Below are positions 6,046 to 51,674 of a stretch of DNA of 64,000 nucleotides, piece by piece (position 1 is the first letter of the stretch; every line of letters begins with the position of its first letter). The stretch comes from Candidatus Sungiibacteriota bacterium (lineage in GTDB: Bacteria; Patescibacteriota; Minisyncoccia; Sungbacterales; HO2-52-23). The notes under the pieces were generated by a model. It did not search any database and had not been told where the DNA came from. It saw only the letters and a program-made list of their open reading frames with translations. The position numbers and the translations under genes were made by a program. The stretch lies in assembly GCA_016432465.1 (NCBI GenBank), contig CP066690.1, positions 317,538-381,537 of the forward strand, written 5' to 3'.

Positions 6046-6429
6046 ATGAAACCGCTTATTAAGTTTTTAGATGCGATACGGCGCCTTCCGGAAGAAGTAA
6101 GACGCGCCCTGGCCATAACCAGCACTGTGGCTGCAGCGCTCATAATTTTTTGGGCGTGGCGCGCAGCCGTAGTATCGCGCCTGGAAAGACCCGAAGAATT
6201 TAGAATGGTTAGGGAAACACCGATTTCTACAGAAAAAAATGTTTCATCAGAACCCGATGTCCTCGCACCCTCTGCCGGACTCGTAGAAACATTTCAGTCT
6301 CTAGAAAAATTTATTGTGCCTAAGCAGGGGACCGACCAGAAAAGCATGGGGTCAAAAAGAAACATTCTTGCTAGTATCAGCAGCGGACTAGAAAAAGCGT
6401 GGAGGTATGTTTATGATCCGCTAAAATAA
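6046..6429 (+). CDS. hypothetical membrane protein
   Basis: 127-aa ORF with one TM (ALAITSTVAAALIIFWAW); stop overlaps the gyrA start (taaATG). Confidence 0.5.
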   Translation: MKPLIKFLDAIRRLPEEVRRALAITSTVAAALIIFWAWRAAVVSRLERPEEFRMVRETPISTEKNVSSEPDVLAPSAGLVETFQSLEKFIVPKQGTDQKSMGSKRNILASISSGLEKAWRYVYDPLK

Positions 6430-9400
6430 ATGAACATAGGCAGAATTCAACAAAGAGAAATAGTGGAGGAGATGCGCGAGTCGTACCTTGACTACGCCAT
6501 GTCGGTCATTGTTGCTCGCGCGCTTCCCGACGTAAGAGACGGCCTGAAACCAGTGCACCGCCGGATTTTGTATTCAATGCATGAACTTGGCCTGACGCAT
6601 TCAGCAAAAACAAGAAAATGCGCAACGATTATCGGAGACGTATTGGGTAAATACCATCCTCATGGCGACGTGGCGGTTTATGATGCGCTGGTGCGCATGG
6701 CGCAAGAATTTTCACTTCGTTATCCCCTCGTTGAGGGGCAGGGAAATTTTGGTTGTTTCACGCAAGATACAAAAGTAAAACTCACCGATGGGCGGGATCT
6801 TTCATTCGGAGAGTTGGCGGAGGAACTCAAGACCGGAAAAAAGAATTATACATACACCGTGAACAGTCTTGGGCTTGTTGGTCTCGCGGAAATAAAACAT
6901 CCGCGTCTTACGAAAAAGAAGGCCCGTGTTATCACCGTTGTTTTAGATAACGGAGAAACAATACGCTGTACGCCCGATCACCGATTTATGATGCGAGATG
7001 GAACATATAAAGAAGCCGGGTCCCTTACGGAACATGACTCGTTGATGCCGCTCTACCAAAAACTATCAACGAAAACAGACAGACTGCAACGGGAAGGATA
7101 CCTATTGGTGTACCAGCCCAAAAAAGACGAATGGGTTCCGGCTCACCACTTGGCTGACAACTATAATCTGACGCGCCATATCTACCAAAAAAATGCCGGC
7201 CGCGTACGGCATCATGTGGACTTTAACAAACTCAACAATAACCCGGACAATGTCAAAAGGCTTGGCTGGGGCGAACATTGGAAAATCCACTATACACATG
7301 CGGCAAAACAACACCAAAAACCGGAATATCGGGAAAAAATCGCGTACGGGCGACGGATGTATTGGGCGGACGAGAAAAACAAAGAACACCACCGAAGCTT
7401 ACTTGCGGAGCGAAATCGCGTTAACTGGCAAAATCCCGAGTACCGAGAACGAATGAAGACATTCCTAAGTCAAGTCAACACCGAATATGTCAAGAAGCAT
7501 CCGGAAAAGAGGAACGAGTTTAGCGAGCGGGCAACACGAACGCTCAAACGCCTGTGGCAAGATCCAGAGTACCGGGCGACGATGCATCAAAAAATCATCA
7601 AAGGGAACAAAAATCATGTCAGCAACAAAACAGGAAAGCTAAAATTTTTAAACATTTGTAAAGAAACACTGAATCGTTTTCAGATACTTGAAGAAAAAGT
7701 ATATGAGCAAGCGCGTAAAGAGGTATATCCATATGGACGGGCGCCTTTATGGAAAACCGGATTGCAAAAATACTTTGCCGGAGATTCAAACCTTGTTCAT
7801 CAGGAATTGTTTAAAAATCACCGAGTTATAAGGATTGAGGACAAAAATGAGTACGAAGACGTTTTTGATCTAACCGTTGACGGAACTCATAATTTTGCGT
7901 TAGCAGCAGGTGTTTTTGTACATAATTCAATTGATGGGGACGCCGCCGCACACTATCGCTATACCGAAGCCCGCATGACCAGAATTGCCGAAGAGCTCCT
8001 GCGCGACATTGAAAAAAATACAGTTGAATTTCGCGACAACTACGATGCCACCCGTAAAGAACCCGTAGTACTTCCTGCGGCTCTTCCCGCTCTCCTGCTT
8101 AACGGAACTCTGGGAATAGCGGTGGGAATGGCAACCAGTATTCCTCCGCATAATCTTGGCGAGGTAACTGCGGCCCTGATCCACTTTAGCGACCACCCCA
8201 AGGCCTCGCTGGAGGATCTAATGGAGTTTATCAAGGGGCCGGACTTCCCCACCGGAGGAATAATTTTTGACGAAAAAGAAATCCGCGCCTCTTACGCATC
8301 GGGCAAGGGGGCCATTTTAAATCGTGGTGTGGCCGAGATTGAAGAGGGCGGCCGCGGAGCGCACCAAATTGTAATCACGGAGATTCCGTATCAGGTAAAC
8401 AAGGCCGAACTAATAGAAACCATGGCCGGTCTCGTGCAGGAAAAGAAAATTGAGGGCATACGAGATATTCGTGACGAATCCGACCGGCAAGGCATGCGCA
8501 TAGTGATTGAACTTAAACAAGATGCGCATCCGCAGAAGGTTTTAAACAATCTTTACCGGCACACTGACCTTGAAAAAACGTTTCACCTAAACATGCTTGC
8601 TTTGGTGGATGGGATTCAGCCGCAGGTACTCTCCATAAAAGAGGTGCTGGAAGAATTTCTGAAGCACCGAAACCAAGTAGTAACCCGCCGCACCAAGTTT
8701 GACCTGACCCGAACCCGCGAGCGCCTGCATATTTTAGAAGGACTGAAAAAGGCGCTGGACCACATTGACCGCGTAATTGAAACTATTAAAAAATCCAGAG
8801 ACCGCGATGAAGCGCGTGAAAATTTAATGAAGAAATTTGCCCTAACGGAGCTGCAGGCCGCCGCAATTCTAGAGATGAAACTGCAGACGCTGGCCGGTCT
8901 TGAACGACAAAAAATAGAGGATGAACTCAAAGAAAAGACGGCACTGGCCAAAAATCTTGAGGCCCTGCTGAAAGATCCTAAGAAAATCACAGATGTTATA
9001 AAAAGGGAATTGCACGAAGTAAGGGAAAAATACGGAGACGAGCGAAAAACTAAAGTCATAAAAACATCCCCCAAAGAACTTTCCGAGGAAGATTTGATTC
9101 CCGCAGAAGAGGTAGTGGTGGTGCTGACTCGCGGCGGTTACATAAAACGGATAAAACCGGAACAATACAAAATGCAGAAGCGCGGCGGTAAGGGGCTTAT
9201 CGGGATGGAGACCAAAGAGGAAGACATGGTGGAACATTTGCTAACCTGCAATACTCACTCCAACCTTCTTTTCTTCACCAGTTCCGGAAAGATTTATCAG
9301 GTTCGGACCTACGAAATTCCGGAAGGAAGTCGTATCTCCAAAGGCAAGGCAATCTTTAACTTTTTGGCGCTTTCCAGCAATGAGCAGATAAACTCCCTTC

Positions 9401-10041
9401 TGGCCACTGCCGGAGCGAAAAAGGGAGAACGCGAGGGTTACATAGTAATGGTGACCAAAGACGGCGTCATCAAAAAGGTTACAGCTTCGGCTTTTGAGAA
9501 CGTCCGCCGCTCAGGACTAATTGCTCTAACCCTAAGGGGCGGCGATCTGCTGCGTTGGGCCAAACTAACGAGCGGCTCTGACGAACTTATACTGGTTACC
9601 AAAAAGGGACAGTCCATAAGATTTGCAGAAAAAGATGTGCGTCCCATGGGACGACAAGCCAGCGGTGTTCGGGCCGTACGTCTGAAAAAAGGTGATGAGG
9701 TGGTGGGTATGGACGTAATCAATAAGGAACAAGTAGCCAACGGTAAATTGCTGGTCATAATGGAGAACGGATTTGGCAAACACACGTTAGTTAAACAATA
9801 CAAAAGGCAACGCAGGGGCGGATCAGGCATAAAAACTGCCAAAATTACTTCCAAAACAGGAAATGTTGTCGGGGCGCGTATCGTGGACAAGGAAGAAACG
9901 GAACTAATCACTATATCCAAAAAAGGTCAGGTTATCCACACTACCCTTGCGGCCATACCCGTGCTCGGCCGCGCCACCCAAGGAGTAAGAATTATGAAAT
10001 TGGAAACAGGAGACGCGGTGGCTTCTATTACTGCGCTGTAA
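6430..10041 (+). CDS. gyrA: DNA gyrase subunit A, interrupted by an in-frame intein
   Basis: N-terminus ...[17 protein letters not shown]...GKYHPHGD...GQGNFG, then C-extein [17 protein letters not shown] (catalytic Tyr region), GyrA box and C-terminal beta-pinwheel repeats; 1203 aa against ~810 aa expected without the insert. Confidence 0.9.
6754..7926 (+). mobile_element. Intein (391 aa) in gyrA carrying an HNH-type homing-endonuclease region and NUMOD-like repeats
   Basis: Starts with Cys right after GNFG (tgt at 6754); block-B TPDH; ends VFVHN (His-Asn) followed by +1 Ser (tca 7927); internal [27 protein letters not shown] (I-HmuI-like HNH) plus three ~30-aa repeats ending NPEYRE(K/R)M / DPEYRATM. 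Confidence 0.8.
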
Positions 10042-14143: not shown

Positions 14144-14250
14144 CTCGCCCCGTTAGAGATTTAGATTGGATATCCTGGTGCACGTTTAAGAACCGAAGTT
14201 AAAGGTATGACTTCTTTTTAGGGCTCACCCTACATCTCTAACGGGGCGAG
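14144..14250. repeat. MITE-like inverted-repeat element (copy Z) whose right arm abuts or overlaps the tRNA-Leu 5' end
   Basis: CTCGCCCCGTTAGAGAT (14144-14160) and ATCTCTAACGGGGCGAG (14234-14250) are exact reverse complements (17 bp) around a ~73-nt core; the same terminal motif recurs at 39025-39143, 39675-39776 and 34954-34967. Confidence 0.6.
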
Positions 14251-14327
14251 TAGCCGAATTGGTATAGGCGCTAGGCCTAGGACCTAGTGGTCGAAAGGCC
14301 GTGGAGGTTCGAGTCCTCTCTCGCCCA
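14244..14327 (+). tRNA. tRNA-Leu (anticodon UAG), type II with long variable arm
   Basis: Acceptor GGGCGAG/CTCGCCC+A, anticodon stem CTAGG/CCTAG, loop CCTAGGA, variable arm GGTC-GAAA-GGCC, T-arm GGAGG-TTCGAGT-CCTCT; position 33 reads C rather than U, which is unusual. Confidence 0.65.
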
Positions 14328-14367
14328 TTTGCCCGTGTAGTTTAACGGCAAAACAACCCCACCCTTT

Positions 14368-14440
14368 GCCCAAGTAGCTCAGTTGGTAGAGCACGATCAT
14401 GGTAAGATCGGGGTCCGCGGTTCGATTCCGCGCTTGGGCT
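14368..14440 (+). tRNA. tRNA-Thr (anticodon GGU)
   Basis: GCCCAAG-TA-GCTC-AGTTGGTA-GAGC-A-CGATC-ATGGTAA-GATCG-GGGTC-CGCGG-TTCGATT-CCGCG-CTTGGGC-T; all stems perfect. Confidence 0.85.
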
Positions 14441-14527
14441 GAACAAAGAGCGGGGTAAACGAGAGTTCAACTCTCTCCTCGGGCTCTGTTAAACATCGAG
14501 TGTTTAACATTAATTAATCAAATAGCT

Positions 14528-14656
14528 ATGGCCCAACTTAATCTCATACGATTGCAGTGTACTGTCTGCAAACGCATCAAAGCCGACGCGTCGGTCGGCT
14601 CCCCGACTTCACTATCGTATTTAAGATCGTGCGTCGGGGCTACTGGACTTAAATAA
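14528..14656 (+). pseudogene. 5' partial duplicate of rpmG (L33), frame-continued into unrelated sequence
   Basis: MAQLNLIRLQCTVCKR matches the L33 N-terminus MPQLNLIRLQCTTCKR of the intact gene 133 nt downstream (~75% nt identity over the first 48 nt); the second CxxC zinc-ribbon half is absent. Confidence 0.5.
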
Positions 14657-14660
14657 AAAT

Positions 14661-14822
14661 ATGCCGCAACTAAATTTAATAAGGTTACAGTGTACCACTT
14701 GTAAACGCTATAACTACTGGACGCGAAAAAATATCCGCAAAGTTGAGCGGAAACTTCAGTTTAAAAAATACTGCAAATGGGATCGGAAACATACACTACA
14801 TAAAGAAGCCAAGAAGACGTAG
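14661..14822 (+). CDS. rpmG: 50S ribosomal protein L33
   Basis: 53-aa ORF MPQLNLIRLQCTTCKRYNYWTRKNIRKVERKLQFKKYCKWDRKHTLHKEAKKT with CxxC...C L33 zinc-ribbon pattern; below the 60-aa cut-off of the ORF track. Confidence 0.8.
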   Translation: MPQLNLIRLQCTTCKRYNYWTRKNIRKVERKLQFKKYCKWDRKHTLHKEAKKT

Positions 14823-14836
14823 CTGTTCCTGAAAGT

Positions 14837-15001
14837 GGGTGCGTGGCGCAATTGGTGGCGCGTCGGTCTCCAATCCCGCCCTTTCATTGGGGGTGTAAGC
14901 TTAGCGGTAAACTGCGGGTCTCCAAAACCCGACTCCTCCGTTCGAATCGGAGCACCCCCGTTGAAAGGGCGGGACGAGCCCTGGCGCACCCGATACTAAA
15001 A
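14837..15001 (+). other. tRNA-like palindromic shell enclosing tRNA-Trp (5' half of a second tRNA-Trp-like sequence plus complementary 3' acceptor strand)
   Basis: GGGTGCG-TG-GCGC-AATTGGT-GGCGC-G-TCGGT-CTCCAAT (acceptor, perfect D-arm, anticodon stem/loop with CCA) at 14837-14884; far side CGCACCC (14995-15001) is complementary to GGGTGCG; inner 12-bp inverted repeat CCCGCCCTTTCA (14885-14896) / TGAAAGGGCGGG (14972-14983). Confidence 0.5.
14899..14970 (+). tRNA. tRNA-Trp (anticodon CCA)
   Basis: GGGGGTG-TA-AGCT-TAGCGGTAA-ACT-G-CGGGT-CTCCAAA-ACCCG-ACTC-CTCCG-TTCGAAT-CGGAG-CACCCCC-G; acceptor and anticodon stems perfect. Confidence 0.8.
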
Positions 15002-19903: not shown

Positions 19904-22468
19904 ATGTCTGCACGTATAGGTGCTGAAGAGCTAAAAGAAGCCATTACTAAACTCAAGACCCAACCACGTTATTTAAGAGCTCCTTCCGGAAAAAAGGTTC
20001 TTAAAAAAGCAGTTAAGTCCGGACTTGATTGGAAAAAACTAGAAGAACTTTTTGGCAGATCACAATCAGCCATAGAAAAAGCGCTTAGTTATCATGGGGT
20101 TGCCAAGCCCCGTAATAAAACTTCTGATTATAGCGAAGAACAGCTAAAGATTGCAAAAGAAAAATATACTGCATCGTTTTTGGTTGAATCTAAACAGGGG
20201 TCGGCAGAACTTAGCCAACAAATGGTTCAAGCATTAAATGCCCAACGCCTACAGGAAGGTAAAAAAACAGTAAGTCTAAACGCGCTGCGCTGCGCCATAC
20301 ACGATCTTAAGCCCGATTGGAAATGGGGCTGGCCCGCAGCCAAAACAACCGCAACTAGTCCGCGGACTAAGCGGGAAGAAAAACCGCCAGAATTTCTCCA
20401 ACGACGCTGGCCCGAACCGGAAACAATAGAAGTACCACGTGACAAATGGGAACGTCCCGGAGCACGGGTTGCCTATCTTTCTTACAGCGCTTATAGAAAT
20501 AGCGGCTGGCGTCAAGGACTACCGCAGCTAGCCGTAGAAATCGCAGCAAACTACGGCTGTCACTTTCCGGTATTTGCCGGCGGACTGCTTGATAAGGAGT
20601 GGGTTCAAAAAGAGGTTAAAAGGCTGACCGCCAATTTTGGCAGAAGATACGCTGGTGAGATCACGGAGCATGTTAAAGACGAAATCGTTCGGGCGCTATT
20701 GTCCACTCTCCCTAAGTCCAAAAAACCAGACGGAAGCCTAGCGCGCTGGTATTTAATGGCCAGCATCCCTTACGACGGCCCGGAACAGCAGGCAGAGGCA
20801 ATTTTAAGAAGACTGCAGGAGCTGCGCGAAGACGTGAGACAATATAAAACCGGTGGCGAAAGAATAGAGATTAAACAACCAGACGGAAGACCAAGTATTT
20901 GGCATGGTGTGGTGCTTCCCAAAAAAAGACGTCTTTCCTCAAAATATATGAGCGCCAAACCAGAACGGGATATTGAGGACGTTGAAGATCAAACCTCAAG
21001 AGGTTATCCGGATCTTTGGGTGCATGGCACTTCGGCAACGGCCATCTTCAAACCCAGCGGTGAACGCGCGGTGCCCTATATAACTCTTCCGGCTATACAT
21101 AAACTAGAGGCCGAAAAAAAACAAATCGCGGAAAATCAGGTTGGTCTTGCCATTGTTGAGGAAATGCCGGACGGCGACCGTTTAATTCACTGGTGGAGTT
21201 TACGTGACCTCATTGCCCGTGAACGGGGATTTATTACCGGTATAAAAGAGGGCGCAACCGATCTTCACAAAAAAATCGTTGCCATTATAAAACGGGAAGG
21301 GGCACGCCACCCCGGCCGTTTGGCAGATGAACTTGGAATTGACCGGCAAACCCTAAATCAGGAAATTCAATTTCTGGTAGAACCGAAACGCTCCGGCCGC
21401 CTTACTTGGCCGGGACTACAGTATGACGAACACTCTCAACGATATGATTTCCACGGAGACTGGACTCAGGAGATGCTTCGCTATGCCCTACCCAGAGACG
21501 GCGAGGGCTGGCATGAAGATTCTTTTCTATTTTTTGGATGCTTGCATGCAGGATACACCACTACTGACTATGACTTTGTAGTAAAGAACTTCCCTGAAAT
21601 TATTCTTAAATATGGCATTAAGGTTCTGGCGGGGGTTGGTGACTTTATAGCGGGACTCCATCATAGCTTCATGCATAAAGGCGAAATTTTCCAGTTGAAC
21701 AATACCGAGCAGGAACAGTTTGCCGGAGAGATCGTGGCAACCGTAATCTATAAAGTCTTTACGGCCAGATTTGAGGAAGCACTGAAATTATTTGAGGGAC
21801 GAACCCCCACCACGGAAGAAATAACTTCTTTGGTTGATAAATCGCTTCTTCTCTTCCTGATTAAGAAAGGGAACCACGACACGTGGCAGGAATATGACGG
21901 CAATACTGCCCTACAGAAATTCTACGATACGTTAACCGCACTTCTTCCTTACCATCTTCGGGTCTATCTTGCAGGAAAGGGTTTTACTACTATTGATCCT
22001 ACGGCTATTGTCAGAAAAAAAACGGTTCTTGTGCCCGAACACAGGCCCGTCTACACCCTTCCCTCCGGAATAAATGTTGGTTTAACCCACCCCCACATGG
22101 CCCGCGCTGATACCACCTCTTTAAGAGCAGAAAAGGCGCTTAAGTTTTTCGCCCAAAGATACGGATGTCAGGTTGTAGGTGTAGCCAACTTCCACGTTGC
22201 AGTTTGCGCCCATAAATGGTGGCCTAAAAACGGACAGTGTGTTGTCATGCAAACGGGAACCGAGGTCATCCTTACAGACTTTGAGTATAACAAGCTGAAG
22301 GGTCTTGACTTCGGACCGCTACTCCTTAAAACACTTTCTTATAAAGGAAGAATTTACAGAACAACAATGGCGGCCTTTAATAAGCCGCTGCTTACTGAAG
22401 AGGAAATTCCGCCAAAATGGACGGACGTGACGAAACTCAAGAAGAGACTGGGACTTCTGGGATATTAG
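19904..22468 (+). CDS. large multidomain protein: N-terminal unknown region, central winged-HTH-like segment, C-terminal calcineurin-like metallophosphoesterase domain
   Basis: RBS GAAAGGAGAATC then ATG 19904; C-terminal third carries ordered phosphoesterase motifs FFGCLHAG (variant of GDxHG), GVGDFIAGLHH (GDxxD), KGNHD (GNHE), GLTHPH (GH/xH); HTH-like KKIVAIIKREGARHPGRLADELGIDRQTLNQEIQFLV. Confidence 0.55.
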   Translation: MSARIGAEELKEAITKLKTQPRYLRAPSGKKVLKKAVKSGLDWKKLEELFGRSQSAIEKALSYHGVAKPRNKTSDYSEEQLKIAKEKYTASFLVESKQGSAELSQQMVQALNAQRLQEGKKTVSLNALRCAIHDLKPDWKWGWPAAKTTATSPRTKREEKPPEFLQRRWPEPETIEVPRDKWERPGARVAYLSYSAYRNSGWRQGLPQLAVEIAANYGCHFPVFAGGLLDKEWVQKEVKRLTANFGRRYAGEITEHVKDEIVRALLSTLPKSKKPDGSLARWYLMASIPYDGPEQQAEAILRRLQELREDVRQYKTGGERIEIKQPDGRPSIWHGVVLPKKRRLSSKYMSAKPERDIEDVEDQTSRGYPDLWVHGTSATAIFKPSGERAVPYITLPAIHKLEAEKKQIAENQVGLAIVEEMPDGDRLIHWWSLRDLIARERGFITGIKEGATDLHKKIVAIIKREGARHPGRLADELGIDRQTLNQEIQFLVEPKRSGRLTWPGLQYDEHSQRYDFHGDWTQEMLRYALPRDGEGWHEDSFLFFGCLHAGYTTTDYDFVVKNFPEIILKYGIKVLAGVGDFIAGLHHSFMHKGEIFQLNNTEQEQFAGEIVATVIYKVFTARFEEALKLFEGRTPTTEEITSLVDKSLLLFLIKKGNHDTWQEYDGNTALQKFYDTLTALLPYHLRVYLAGKGFTTIDPTAIVRKKTVLVPEHRPVYTLPSGINVGLTHPHMARADTTSLRAEKALKFFAQRYGCQVVGVANFHVAVCAHKWWPKNGQCVVMQTGTEVILTDFEYNKLKGLDFGPLLLKTLSYKGRIYRTTMAAFNKPLLTEEEIPPKWTDVTKLKKRLGLLGY

Positions 22469-32983: not shown

Positions 32984-33055
32984 GGGCGACTAGCTCAGTG
33001 GTAGAGCGTTCCGTTCACATCGGAAAGATCACAGGTTCGATCCCTGTGTCGCCCA
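32984..33055 (+). tRNA. tRNA-Val (anticodon CAC)
   Basis: GGGCGAC-TA-GCTC-AGTGGTA-GAGC-G-TTCCG-TTCACAT-CGGAA-AGATC-ACAGG-TTCGATC-CCTGT-GTCGCCC-A. Confidence 0.85.
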
Positions 33056-38379: not shown

Positions 38380-38450
38380 GCGGGTGTAGCACAATGGTAG
38401 TGCGCTTGCCTTCCAAGCAAGATACGTGGGTTCGATTCCCGTCACCCGCT
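38380..38450 (+). tRNA. tRNA-Gly (anticodon UCC)
   Basis: GCGGGTG-TA-GCAC-AATGGTA-GTGC-G-CTTGC-CTTCCAA-GCAAG-ATAC-GTGGG-TTCGATT-CCCGT-CACCCGC-T; promoter TTGAAA...TATAAT upstream. Confidence 0.8.
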
Positions 38451-38553
38451 TCAAAAAAATAACCCCTTAGATATTGGGTTATTTTTTATACTGGTGAGGG
38501 GAAATAGAACCGCATAAACAAAAAAGCAAAACTTAATTTGCTTCTAAAAATGT

Positions 38554-38583
38554 TGCAGGGGGCTTCTGTGGTGGAAGCCCCCT
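38554..38583 (-). terminator. terminator for 38604..38861
   Basis: AGGGGGCTTC-tgtggtg-GAAGCCCCCT, 10-bp GC-rich stem. Confidence 0.55.
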
Positions 38584-38603
38584 ACTTCTTGGATCGCGTG
38601 GCG

Positions 38604-38861
38604 TTAGTAACCGAGATGGTCCGTCATTGTCCGAAGGACCGTGTCAGGGTCTGTGTCAGGCAAATAGAAACCTACCGCCTGCGGAGCACCATTGAGAACA
38701 TCTTCGGAGGGTTCTCCTAAGAGCTCCCGTAAGTCTTCTGCCTCTAGTCGGGGAGCCCACACCATGCAATACCCAAAGTGGTCCACGATGACAGGACCTT
38801 CTCCAGCCGCAAGCGAAGCCACGATTATACTGCTACTAACTTCATCGGTCACGATCTTCAT
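38604..38861 (-). CDS. hypothetical protein (appears GC-richer than surroundings)
   Basis: RBS AAAGGAGGAGTCAG then ATG at 38861 (MKIVTDEVSSS...); 85 aa. Confidence 0.5.
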   Translation of the reverse strand: MKIVTDEVSSSIIVASLAAGEGPVIVDHFGYCMVWAPRLEAEDLRELLGEPSEDVLNGAPQAVGFYLPDTDPDTVLRTMTDHLGY

Positions 38862-39024
38862 CTGACTCCTCCTTTCAGTTGTGGGCCCGTGGGCCTGGAA
38901 CATTACTAATCATAACATTTAGACCATTAAAAGTCAAGTTTTTTGAGTTAAGCCAATAAATCACGCGAAATTTGGAATAGCGAATAATCCGGGCCCTATA
39001 CTCCAACAGGTTCTAACATCATTC

Positions 39025-39143
39025 ATCCCGTTAGAAATAGGACGCGGACGGAGTTCTTTACATTTTACTTGTCATTTTTGGGCGAAAGTTACCCTGGAAA
39101 CAAAAGCCGTGTTTGGATACGCGTCCGCGATTTCTAACGGGAT
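39025..39143. repeat. MITE-like inverted-repeat element (copy X)
   Basis: ATCCCGTTAGAAATAGGACGCGGACG ... CGTCCGCGATTTCTAACGGGAT, imperfect ~22-bp terminal inverted repeats. Confidence 0.55.
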
Positions 39144-39429
39144 TCACTAACCCGCTTGTAACCGAAAATAAACCCTCCTACCTACTAACCACAGGGGCAC
39201 GAATAAAAATAACAAGAGTATTGCTGTAAATTCTCCTTGCTATCATCTCAAACTTTTCTGGTTAGTAAGTGGGGGGTAAACAGAAAGAATATGGAAAGTG
39301 AGAAATACCCATAGATACGAGGTTTTTGTTACGAACAGTGAAAAATTGTAACCGCCCGCCTTGACACATAATGAGTAATATGCAACTAATTTATTTAGTT
39401 CCCCATACCACTACATAAGGAGTAAACCA

Positions 39430-39621
39430 ATGGTAGAGATTCATAGACATCCGGTATGGCCGTATAGAGTTGTTTATGGTGAAAAACTTCGTGCAGGTGA
39501 CACCATTCAGTCTGACGATGTATACGATTCAACCTCGGGAAATTGGGAAAAGGCCCCATGTCCAGGTGTCATCTTACAAGAAGGTTGTAACACTTATTGG
39601 GTACGTCCATCACCTACTTAA
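39430..39621 (+). CDS. small hypothetical protein
   Basis: RBS TAAGGAGTAAACCA then ATG 39430; 63 aa; followed by a hairpin + T-run terminator (39636-39670). Confidence 0.5.
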   Translation: MVEIHRHPVWPYRVVYGEKLRAGDTIQSDDVYDSTSGNWEKAPCPGVILQEGCNTYWVRPSPT

Positions 39622-39674
39622 CAAGGTGGTGTGATTCTTCATCTATCCGTCAAGTGATCTTGGCGGTCTTTTTT

Positions 39675-39776
39675 ATCCCGTTAGAGATTTAGGTAATACC
39701 GAAATAATTAATACTCGCACTCCGCCGTCCTTATCGATGTCATAGAGAGCATTGCGTTCCGCATCTCTAACGGGAT
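39675..39776. repeat. MITE-like inverted-repeat element (copy Y)
   Basis: ATCCCGTTAGAGAT ... ATCTCTAACGGGAT, perfect 14-bp terminal inverted repeats around a ~74-nt core. Confidence 0.55.
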
Positions 39777-39869
39777 TTATTCAAAACTAGGCCTATACCC
39801 GCCCCTTGACATTACTTTATGACCGAACTATTATTGTAATATAAATTATTACAGTAACTGAAAACTATT

Positions 39870-40085
39870 ATGCGAAACATAATTAACCTTTCGTTGCCGC
39901 AGAAGATGACAGAAGTTGTAGAGGAAAATGTTAAAAAGGGCCATTTTTCCAGCAAAAGCGAATTTTTCCGCATGCTCCTTCGTCTCTGGATGGAAGGGAA
40001 ACTTGCGGAAGAACTTGAGGAAAGCCGTAAGGAACTGCGCGGAGGCAAAGGCAAACTACTGAAATCGTTTAAAAACTTCCGATAA
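39870..40085 (+). CDS. type II antitoxin, ribbon-helix-helix (CopG/ParD-like)
   Basis: 71 aa, RHH-like N-terminus (ISLPQKMTEVVEENVKKGHFSSKSEFFRMLLRLW); 9-nt gap to a RelE/ParE-like toxin gene; an inverted repeat TTGTAATA-taaat-TATTACAG sits upstream. Confidence 0.6.
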   Translation: MRNIINLSLPQKMTEVVEENVKKGHFSSKSEFFRMLLRLWMEGKLAEELEESRKELRGGKGKLLKSFKNFR

Positions 40086-40094
40086 GACGACCGT

Positions 40095-40352
40095 ATGCGG
40101 ATTTATTATTCCTCAAAATTTGAACGCGAATATAGAAAACTACCGAAGGAAATCAAGATAGTAGCCGAAGAAAAAGGCGTTATTTTCAGGAAAAATCCGT
40201 TTGACCCCCGGCTTGATACGCATAAATTACACGGTCGCCTGAAAGAGTACTGGGCTTTTTCTATTGTAGACAAATACCGGATTATTTTTGAGTTTGCAGA
40301 AAAAGACATAATCTGGTTTCATTCCGTTGGCGACCATTCAATTTATCAGTAG
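40095..40352 (+). CDS. type II toxin, RelE/ParE family
   Basis: 85 aa; MRIYYSSKFEREYRKLPKEIK...LHGRLKEYWAFSIVDKYRIIFEF...IIWFHSVGDHSIY matches the RelE/ParE fold signature. Confidence 0.6.
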   Translation: MRIYYSSKFEREYRKLPKEIKIVAEEKGVIFRKNPFDPRLDTHKLHGRLKEYWAFSIVDKYRIIFEFAEKDIIWFHSVGDHSIYQ

Positions 40353-49720: not shown

Positions 49721-50206
49721 ATGAAAAACAGGGGGTTCGCTCTTTTCACACTAGTTGCGGTGGCCCTCGTTTTTGGGGGCTGCGCAGTCGTCAATACCAG
49801 CGTAAGACCGAGTGCCCCGTTCCTCAACATCGACGGCTTCAATGCCGTCGAAATCAAGGGCAAGATCACGGACAAACAACGGGTCGAGGAGCTGAAGAAG
49901 TTCCTCGACGCCAAGATTGGGGGACTGGGCGAAGGGTCTGCTTCCCTCCTCATAGATTTCACCGTCTATGATGAGGGGGACGACCTCACACGCAGGATGC
50001 TTGGCTTTGGGGCGGGGAAGGTCCGCTTCGGAGCACAGGTGTCGATTCTGAAGAACGGACAGGCCGTATTTACGTGGCCTGTCTGGATAGATTCCAGCAT
50101 CACCGCTCACATCACGGTGGGCGGAATGCTGGAGAGGTTCGCCGAGAAGGTTGCGGCGGACCTTGCATCCATTCTTCGTAAGACCCCCCAGCCCTCAACG
50201 GGTTAG
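49721..50206 (+). CDS. putative lipoprotein (appears GC-richer than surroundings)
   Basis: TATAAT at 49667; RBS AAAGGAGGCAG; signal + lipobox-like LVFGGC. Confidence 0.5.
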   Translation: MKNRGFALFTLVAVALVFGGCAVVNTSVRPSAPFLNIDGFNAVEIKGKITDKQRVEELKKFLDAKIGGLGEGSASLLIDFTVYDEGDDLTRRMLGFGAGKVRFGAQVSILKNGQAVFTWPVWIDSSITAHITVGGMLERFAEKVAADLASILRKTPQPSTG

Positions 50207-50252
50207 GGGGTTTTATATTGTTTTAGTACTAAGAAAACATTATTATAAATTT

Positions 50253-51674
50253 GTGGACCAGAGACTTCGCACAAACACAAAGGATAACAAAGTAGCATGG
50301 AGACTACTGATCGTTTTTTTACTTATATCTTTATTACTGCCGTCCGCAACCTATGCGGCCATACTCCCATTTCCAATTATAATCGCCCTCATTGCGGCCA
50401 CCGGAATTGCCGTGACGATTGACTACGCCACCTGCGTCGTAAATGTCGTCTGGGGCGGATGCGGCAACGGCGGTAAGAGTTTTGAAGGAGAACGGGGGAT
50501 TGGTTGTGATCCTCGTTCCGATACGCTCGGCGTTGACGTGAAAGCTAATAATTCCGATGCGCCGGAACCTTTTAATGAACCGGCATTTTATAACATTAAC
50601 TTTTGTATAAAGGGCCCGTGGGCGGAATACACGGAAGGCGGGCAGAGTTTTAACACCAATAGAATGCAGTGCGGATGGAGCGGCAATAGATTTGGCAGCG
50701 AAGAGACCAGAAACTCCGGCAGCTTTCGGGAGTGGGGGGAATGGGGCGGTCCCGGAGGCTCAATTCCTCAAGGCATGAAAGCGGGAACCTATACTTATAC
50801 CCTTTCCTGCACAGGAGCATCCAAAGATCTTGAAGGAGGAGGACCAGAGCAGTCAGCTTCGGACACGGTGGTGGTCAATGTAACCGCAAAAACTACATGC
50901 GTTGCCGATACCTGGAGTTGTGGAGACTGGAGCTCTTGTTCAAACGGCAACCAAACCCGTTCGTGTAATAAAACCTTTGATTGTTCGTCAACAGACACTC
51001 CTTCGCCGCCAACTAGTCAGTCCTGTACAATCAGCAGTGAAACTGATGGGGGTAAAAAGGACGATGGAAGTAAAAAAGATGATGGAAGTAAAAAGGACGA
51101 CGGACAACAGCAACAACAACAGCAGCAAACACAACCCCAAGCCGGAACCCAGTGTAATCCTCCTCGTTGGAATGATATAAGAGTGGATGCGTGTCTGGAC
51201 GAGGAAGGTGGTAAAGCAAACTGCGATAAAAAACAAGAGGCAGCCAATGGGTGGTGCAGTATTGCTTGTGGGGGAGGAGAGGCATTGGGTTTTAACACTT
51301 TCTGGGATACTAGTGGTCCCGGTACTAAATACGTTCCTACGGGCAGAGTATGCCCAACTTGTAGTTTCTACTTCACCAGTGTTTCTTGCGGCAGACGCCG
51401 ACCACCTCCGGCAGCCATTATGAGCTTTATTGCCTCACCCCGCTCCATCAATCCCGGAGAGTCAACCACTCTTTCTTGGTCCTCATTAAACGCCACCTCT
51501 TGTAACCTTAATCAGGGCATTGGTTCGGTTTCCACCAGCGGTTCTCGCTCTGTAAACCCAACCAAAAGTACCACCTATACTCTGACCTGCTCCGGAGAAG
51601 GGGGCTCGCATTCTGCCAGCGTTACGGTTGATGTTTCCAAAATACCATTTCAAAAAGAAGTAGTGCCGGAATGA
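50253..51674 (+). CDS. large Cys-rich surface protein, paralog 2
   Basis: Same architecture as 46124..47617; (DGGKKD/DGSKKD)x3 + Q8 linker; C-terminal module near-identical at nucleotide level; the track ORF begins at ATG 50151 overlapping the upstream gene, an in-frame GTG at 50253 is an alternative start; start unresolved. Confidence 0.55.
   Translation: MDQRLRTNTKDNKVAWRLLIVFLLISLLLPSATYAAILPFPIIIALIAATGIAVTIDYATCVVNVVWGGCGNGGKSFEGERGIGCDPRSDTLGVDVKANNSDAPEPFNEPAFYNINFCIKGPWAEYTEGGQSFNTNRMQCGWSGNRFGSEETRNSGSFREWGEWGGPGGSIPQGMKAGTYTYTLSCTGASKDLEGGGPEQSASDTVVVNVTAKTTCVADTWSCGDWSSCSNGNQTRSCNKTFDCSSTDTPSPPTSQSCTISSETDGGKKDDGSKKDDGSKKDDGQQQQQQQQTQPQAGTQCNPPRWNDIRVDACLDEEGGKANCDKKQEAANGWCSIACGGGEALGFNTFWDTSGPGTKYVPTGRVCPTCSFYFTSVSCGRRRPPPAAIMSFIASPRSINPGESTTLSWSSLNATSCNLNQGIGSVSTSGSRSVNPTKSTTYTLTCSGEGGSHSASVTVDVSKIPFQKEVVPE

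Follow-up and report, generated by a model that had tools for sequence, protein, structure and literature searches.

The analysed window, a stretch of 64,000 nucleotides from the genome of a Candidatus Sungiibacteriota bacterium, carries a gyrA gene with an intein inserted in frame (Table 1). The gene encodes a GyrA precursor of 1203 aa followed by a stop codon, and Pfam identified six DNA_gyraseA_C blades in the translated frame. The insertion lies within a core segment of GyrA that is strictly conserved and divides it in two. Without the 391 inserted residues the protein has 812 aa and was aligned to the GyrA of B. subtilis (4ddq) with an E-value of 2.7e-177. This alignment was free of gaps across the junction, NFGSIDGD facing NFGSVDGD in 4ddq, and the same was observed with 6fqm, thus taking out precursor residues 109-499 restored a contiguous GyrA alignment, as the initial annotation had anticipated. 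The intein-free junction of the spliced gene reads GGNCARGGNAAYTTYGGN↓TCNATHGAYGGNGAY, the arrow here and below marking the splice junction; in the numbering of E. coli GyrA we take this to be G110↓S111 and the catalytic residue to be Y122. In a genome annotation the gene should be named intein-containing gyrA, with a predicted mature protein of 812 aa. The G+C content of the intein, 44.1 %, was lower than that of the whole window (46.2 %), and the extein had the highest value (48.8 %). The low value could indicate a foreign origin or merely a composition rich in Lys and Asn.

Table 1. Features of the gyrA locus. Positions refer to the window; residues are those of the GyrA precursor or of the intein as indicated.
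Feature	Positions	Strand	Residues and motifs	Evidence
gyrA precursor ORF	6430..10041	+		Pfam DNA_topoisoIV 4.3e-156, DNA_gyraseA_C 2.5e-61
N-extein	6430..6753	+	GyrA residues 1-108, ends GQGNFG	
Intein, 391 aa	6754..7926	+	precursor residues 109-499, Cys1 to His390-Asn391	PF14890, TIGR01445, TIGR01443, AlphaFold, Foldseek
N-terminal splicing (Hint) lobe	6754..7050	+	intein residues 1-99, block A Cys1 and block B TPDH	
Predicted HNH (His-Me finger) nuclease domain	7096..7314	+	intein residues ~115-187	
Five alpha-helices on the W-x-(D/N)-P-E-Y-R unit	7315..7617	+	intein residues 188-288	model and unit HMM
C-terminal four-helix bundle of the endonuclease region	7630..7812	+	intein residues 293-353	
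C-terminal splicing lobe	7819..7926	+	intein residues 356-391, blocks F and G	TIGR01443; DnaE/DnaB intein alignment
C-extein	7927..10041	+	Ser+1 first (SIDGD...)	

Several other features of the window were recorded. An ORF of 127 aa (6046-6429, + strand), called as a gene without a recorded Pfam match, ends with a stop codon that abuts the gyrA ATG, and the two may be co-transcribed. Two adjacent small ORFs of 71 aa and 85 aa (39870-40352, + strand) resembled by eye a ribbon-helix-helix antitoxin and a toxin of the RelE/ParE type. The tRNA genes comprise a cluster of three at 14244-14960 (+ strand) and three more at 32984, 36779 and 38380. Neither an ORF of ≥100 aa nor an Rfam match at the gathering score was present in the ~1.4 kb just downstream of a tRNA (38450-39870). 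Two long ORFs, one of 854 aa (19904-22468, + strand) and one of 507 aa (50151-51674, + strand), were not affiliated to any Pfam family at E ≤ 1e-5.

The inserted element starts with Cys1 (TGT at 6754) immediately after GNFG and ends with VFVHN (AAT at 7924-7926), followed by Ser+1. The block-B motif TPDH was located at intein residues 73-76 (6970-6981). The Pfam model Intein_splicing (PF14890) matched with an E-value of 8e-22 and the NCBIfam models for both intein ends were matched as well (intein_Nterm TIGR01445, 1e-10; intein_Cterm TIGR01443, 3e-6), a signal far beyond chance. A sequence search of the PDB with the intein retrieved the DnaE, NrdJ-1 and DnaB inteins. The AlphaFold model, based on 31 aligned sequences, had a mean pLDDT of 89, and Foldseek matched it to the solved Hint domains of the DnaE, NrdJ-1 and DnaB inteins at E-values of ~1e-6. 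Within an alignment of 31 relatives, reaching down to 36 % identity, the residues T73, H76, D372, H379, N380, H390 and N391 were invariant, and Cys1 and Ser+1 were conserved in at least 90 %. By its sequence, the element is a class-1 intein, with a predicted Hint domain that holds all residues for the four-step splicing. The initial annotation had placed an intein of 391 aa between GNFG and SIDGD, with a TPDH block B and a terminal HN before Ser+1; the HMM matches and the gap-free extein alignment bear this out, with exact coordinates and the motifs at the residues given. That the insertion is a permanent additional domain of GyrA, never spliced out, has a negligible probability, since every splicing residue is present and invariant, the Hint fold was predicted with high confidence and the insertion splits a strictly conserved part of the host protein.

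The central 256 aa (intein residues ~100-355) form the endonuclease region. A LAGLIDADG endonuclease, also discounted in the initial annotation, was rejected, the domain HMM having no match in the window protein. Pfam HNH was likewise unmatched in the window protein at E ≤ 1, and HNH_3 (PF13392) at E ≤ 0.1. HNH_3 was matched by 15 of the 31 relatives, with a best E-value of 4.5e-5, and the PHROG family 7545, 'HNH endonuclease', matched over residues 64-192 with 5.3e-7. Because Foldseek with the whole intein had returned Hint domains only, the endonuclease region was modelled separately. The resulting model had a pLDDT of 92.8 and presented two strands and a helix around the HNH core motif (H153-H179, 7210-7290); the modelled HNH domain has a beta-beta-alpha-metal fold. 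Compared with viral models by Foldseek, the best match was a Hint-domain protein of the Bacillus phage SP-15 (4.9e-7), followed by many HNH homing endonucleases of phages. The residues H154, N162, N166, H175 and H179 were invariant in the 31 relatives, while H153 was conserved in at least 90 %. A sequence profile of the HNH region retrieved chance-level matches only from the PDB and did not retrieve I-HmuI, therefore the relation to this enzyme is one of fold and Pfam family, not of close homology. The link to I-HmuI is based on the modelled fold and on the HNH_3 matches of the relatives. Taking sequence and fold together, the middle of the intein is a predicted HNH nuclease of the I-HmuI / HNH_3 kind. 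The I-HmuI-type assignment in the initial annotation thus gained support from the PHROG family, the HNH_3 matches in relatives, the fold and the invariant residues. Of the profiles named there for a scan, Intein_splicing was matched, HNH_3 and NUMOD1/3/4 were not matched in the window protein.

Behind the HNH domain, the AlphaFold model showed five helices at intein residues 190-205, 207-226, 228-248, 251-268 and 271-283. A short loop of low confidence separates them from the four C-terminal helices, and this bundle is probably helix-turn-helix-like. The motif PEYR is present in three copies, at residues 190, 228 and 271 of the intein (codons 7321-7332, 7435-7446 and 7564-7575), each as the opening of a helix, namely the first, the third and the fifth, with a spacing of 38 and 43 aa. 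Across the family the repeat unit has a length of ~19-21 aa and the consensus WQDPEYREKMSEKLSEYNK. An HMM of the unit, built from the other family members with the window protein left out, was significant for two units in the window protein (225-243 and 268-286); the third unit, from residue 188 and without the leading Trp, was weak. Relatives with inteins of 183 to 523 aa had 0 to 7 detectable units. Three repeats of ~30 aa resembling NUMOD modules had been proposed for this part. The repeats are real, their spacing is 38 and 43 aa and not ~30 aa, and membership in the NUMOD families has to be rejected: the Pfam models of NUMOD1/3/4 found no match in the window protein at E ≤ 1, nor in the 31 relatives at E ≤ 0.1. 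The term 'NUMOD-like' is therefore an analogy at most, and the repeats are a separate helical unit, W-x-(D/N)-P-E-Y-R. The W-x-D-P-x-Y-R helices may act as a modular DNA-reading array, the length of which would set the target recognition. If this is true, the array represents a new kind of nuclease-associated DNA-binding repeat.

A protein search with the intein yielded 735 matches. The best matches, with 47-65 % identity, were fragments of GyrA that share the junction of the window intein, GQGN(F/W/M)G↓CFT...FVHN↓S(I/V/L)DGD, and their sources were named as Patescibacteria, Woesearchaeota, Nanoarchaeota, Euryarchaeota, Omnitrophica and Deltaproteobacteria; some of them already had the label 'intein-containing DNA gyrase subunit A'. 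Many metagenome proteins carried a GNFG↓S intein, some of them named as DPANN archaea, and the exact window protein was present on a Logan metagenome contig. A genome scan, performed with one genome per species, revealed 23 loci with 57-67 % identity, all intact, free of stop codons and with the same junction. Nearly all originated from bins with names of Patescibacteria-type lineages, namely Yanofsky-, Nealson-, Wolfe-, Sungii- or Magasanikiibacteria, Paceibacterota or 'Saccharibacteria', and three of the 23 bins were labelled Gammaproteobacteria. At the same site, size variants were observed: inteins of 183-305 aa with a shortened or deleted endonuclease and expanded ones of 449-523 aa. Searched alone, the endonuclease region matched 497 clusters formed at 50 % identity; eight of them, taken as a sample, included GyrA, GyrB, an AAA protein and a T4-like portal protein. 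The window intein is real, well preserved and a member of a family already common in the gyrase genes of uncultured bacteria and archaea. The HNH intein lineage is large, little described and common to GyrA and GyrB. Beyond gyrases, the same HNH module was seen in inteins hosted by a T4-like portal protein, by an AAA-domain protein (P0147 and P0140) and by the Hint-domain protein of Bacillus phage SP-15 (BFVD A0A127AYL6).

For four close pairs among the loci, dN/dS ratios were calculated; in three of these pairs dS was close to saturated. Values of 0.04-0.12 were obtained for the endonuclease region and comparable ones for the extein and the splicing lobes; by segment, the HNH domain had 0.02-0.15, the repeats 0.06-0.13 and the C-terminal helices 0.01-0.09. 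The endonuclease region is under strong purifying selection in these pairs, and a function different from homing could also account for this. Between close relatives, intein and host for the most part diverge together (L001/L003, L020/L023 and L010/L014). Over 210 pairs, intein and extein identity showed a Pearson coefficient of 0.49 and a Spearman coefficient of 0.08, the correlation being carried by the few closest pairs. One pair, L002/L005, was discordant, with 86 % amino acid identity and a dS of 0.5-0.7 for the intein versus 74 % and a dS of 1.2 for the extein. Inheritance therefore looks mixed; the Spearman coefficient and the discordant pair disfavour a purely vertical mode. Together with the size variants at GNFG↓S, the sequence comparisons fit a homing element that would be inherited vertically over short times and would move between lineages over longer ones.

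The same data have to be weighed for a second explanation, a splicing intein with a relic endonuclease that no longer cuts and is retained since an imprecise loss destroys an essential gene. Co-divergence with the host in the three close pairs, the degenerate and mini versions at the same GyrA site and the missing HNH_3 match of the window protein itself agree with a relic. A relic would drift, however, and the segments of the endonuclease region had dN/dS values of 0.01-0.15 in the four pairs, as low as the extein, with the catalytic and metal-binding residues invariant in the 31 relatives. We consider a relic improbable.

The insertion site lies close to the active site of the gyrase. The catalytic Tyr, assigned by aligning the protein with the RYTEARM motif in solved structures of GyrA, is encoded by 7960-7962, 12 residues downstream of the GNFG↓S junction. 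Counting confirmed the statement in the initial annotation that the insertion is about 12 residues upstream of the site at the catalytic Tyr, which is occupied by a different intein in one relative (P0133). In addition to the HNH intein at GNFG↓S, P0133 has a LAGLIDADG intein, AAMRY↓CITGD...NHN↓TECRM, directly after the catalytic Tyr and 13 residues after its HNH intein. The Tyr site occupied there is that of the mycobacterial GyrA inteins. Another relative, P0131, combines the HNH intein with a LAGLIDADG intein at VVGE↓C...HN↓CLGHYHPHSD; for the second inteins of both proteins, matches to the LAGLIDADG HMM were obtained. With the extra inteins of P0133 and P0131 counted, the ~45 residues around the catalytic Tyr of GyrA therefore accommodate at least three intein sites. 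A literature search on 'GyrA-b', Patescibacteria inteins and the active-site tyrosine site found nothing specific, and GNFG↓S may be a gyrA insertion site undescribed in the intein literature.

A site in the core of the DNA gate, with the catalytic Tyr 12 residues away, also invites the thought of a conditional switch on gyrase maturation that was recruited by the host, for instance responding to redox state or stress via Cys1, with the endonuclease kept for DNA binding. The unspliced precursor should be inactive, and strong selection acts over the whole element. In favour of such a switch is also the sensor role that has been proposed for inteins clustering in replication proteins (Novikova et al., PMC4760082). 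However, the sequence bore no sign of conditional splicing, and a mobile element agrees with the patchy occurrence of the intein, with its mini and expanded variants and with the discordant similarity of intein and extein. The switch appears very improbable, more so than a relic endonuclease.

We favour, with a probability of roughly 85 %, a bifunctional class-1 intein in gyrA that would act in protein splicing and as homing endonuclease. The former function is predicted on the grounds of homology and conserved residues, the latter from the fold, the conservation and the selection. The 1203-aa precursor would be translated, and the Hint domain, assembled from intein residues 1-99 and 356-391, would excise the 391-aa element. 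Splicing would begin with an N-S acyl shift at Cys1, aided by Thr73 and His76 of block B, followed by the attack of the Ser+1 hydroxyl. Cyclisation of Asn391, aided by His390, and an O-N shift would complete the reaction, rejoining GNFG to SIDGD and yielding an active GyrA of 812 aa. The homing endonuclease would consist of three parts, the HNH nuclease, the five W-x-(D/N)-P-E-Y-R helices and the helix-turn-helix-like bundle. His154 would serve as the general base, His175 and His179 (and His153) as metal ligands, and the helical parts would most likely hold the enzyme on the intein-free gyrA around codons 105-115. The single HNH site would nick or cut the intein-free allele, and repair from the intein-bearing copy would spread the element. 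By analogy to I-HmuI, a nick rather than a double-strand break is expected from a lone HNH site. A homing cycle would give rise to mini and expanded variants like those observed at GNFG↓S.

The current understanding of inteins is unchanged by the GNFG↓S intein; its interest lies mainly in the site, the relationship across the gyrase subunits and the uncharacterised helical repeat. As the HNH lineage is common to both gyrase subunits and to uncultured bacteria and archaea, it is usable as a marker of gene flow. With its compact size, well-conserved lobes, Gly-1 and Ser+1, the intein could therefore supply new splicing tools, like Ssp GyrB.

Among known systems, the HNH inteins at the Toprim site of GyrB (Ssp GyrB type) are of the same lineage, with 31-39 % identity over 100 % of the query and E-values of 1e-74 to 1e-50. 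GyrB and window inteins have in common the ends CF(S/T)xDT...G(V/I)FVHN, the HNH motif HHxDFNKxNNNPxN...EH...H, the W-x-D-P-x-Y-R helices, Gly at -1 and Ser at +1. The mini-intein sequence that we take to be Ssp GyrB was 57 % and 62 % identical to the splicing lobes of the window intein, and 75 % identical to one of the GyrB matches (P0056). The Toprim site EGDSAGG↓C...HN↓SAKQGR is the one at which the well-used Ssp GyrB intein is inserted. This intein splices in E. coli (PMC3620165), and the nuclease of a 'Gyrase subunit B intein' was placed in His-Me finger group 22, under HNH_3, by Jablonska et al. 2017 (PMC5714182). The insertion sites differ, GQGNFG↓SIDGD in the GyrA of the window versus EGDSAGG↓SAKQGR in GyrB, and the GyrB inteins are larger, ~432-435 aa with a longer helical region against 391 aa. 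With GyrA as host, the window intein does not belong to the GyrB allele and represents its sister allele in a different gene. The GNFG↓S allele could have originated from a GyrB Toprim-site HNH intein through a move to gyrA, with a subsequent spread among Patescibacteria and DPANN archaea. The combined proposal, that GNFG↓S is an undescribed site, that its intein derives from the GyrB Toprim-site HNH intein and that the W-x-D-P-x-Y-R helices are a modular DNA-reading array, is speculative, and we regard it as rather unlikely to hold in all its parts.

The mycobacterial GyrA inteins (Mxe GyrA, GyrA-a) share the host protein with the window intein, and both are inserted in the catalytic DNA-gate segment. 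The mycobacterial inteins sit directly after the catalytic Tyr (RY↓T), start with CITGD, are followed by Thr+1 and possess a LAGLIDADG endonuclease or none. The window intein differs from GyrA-a in being of the HNH type and 12 residues upstream of the Tyr; with the junction GNFG↓S rather than RY↓T, it is not a member of the GyrA-a allele. I-HmuI (PDB 1u3e), an HNH_3 enzyme encoded in an intron of phage SPO1, is free-standing, whereas the HNH domain of the window is part of an intein. The DNA-binding modules of I-HmuI are of NUMOD types, which were unmatched in the window protein. The last metal ligand of the window HNH domain is a His, in I-HmuI it is said to be an Asn. With NUMOD3 and NUMOD1 the window family shares short, repeated, helix-forming units of variable copy number beside a homing nuclease, but its consensus WQDPEYREKMSEKLSEYNK is a different motif.
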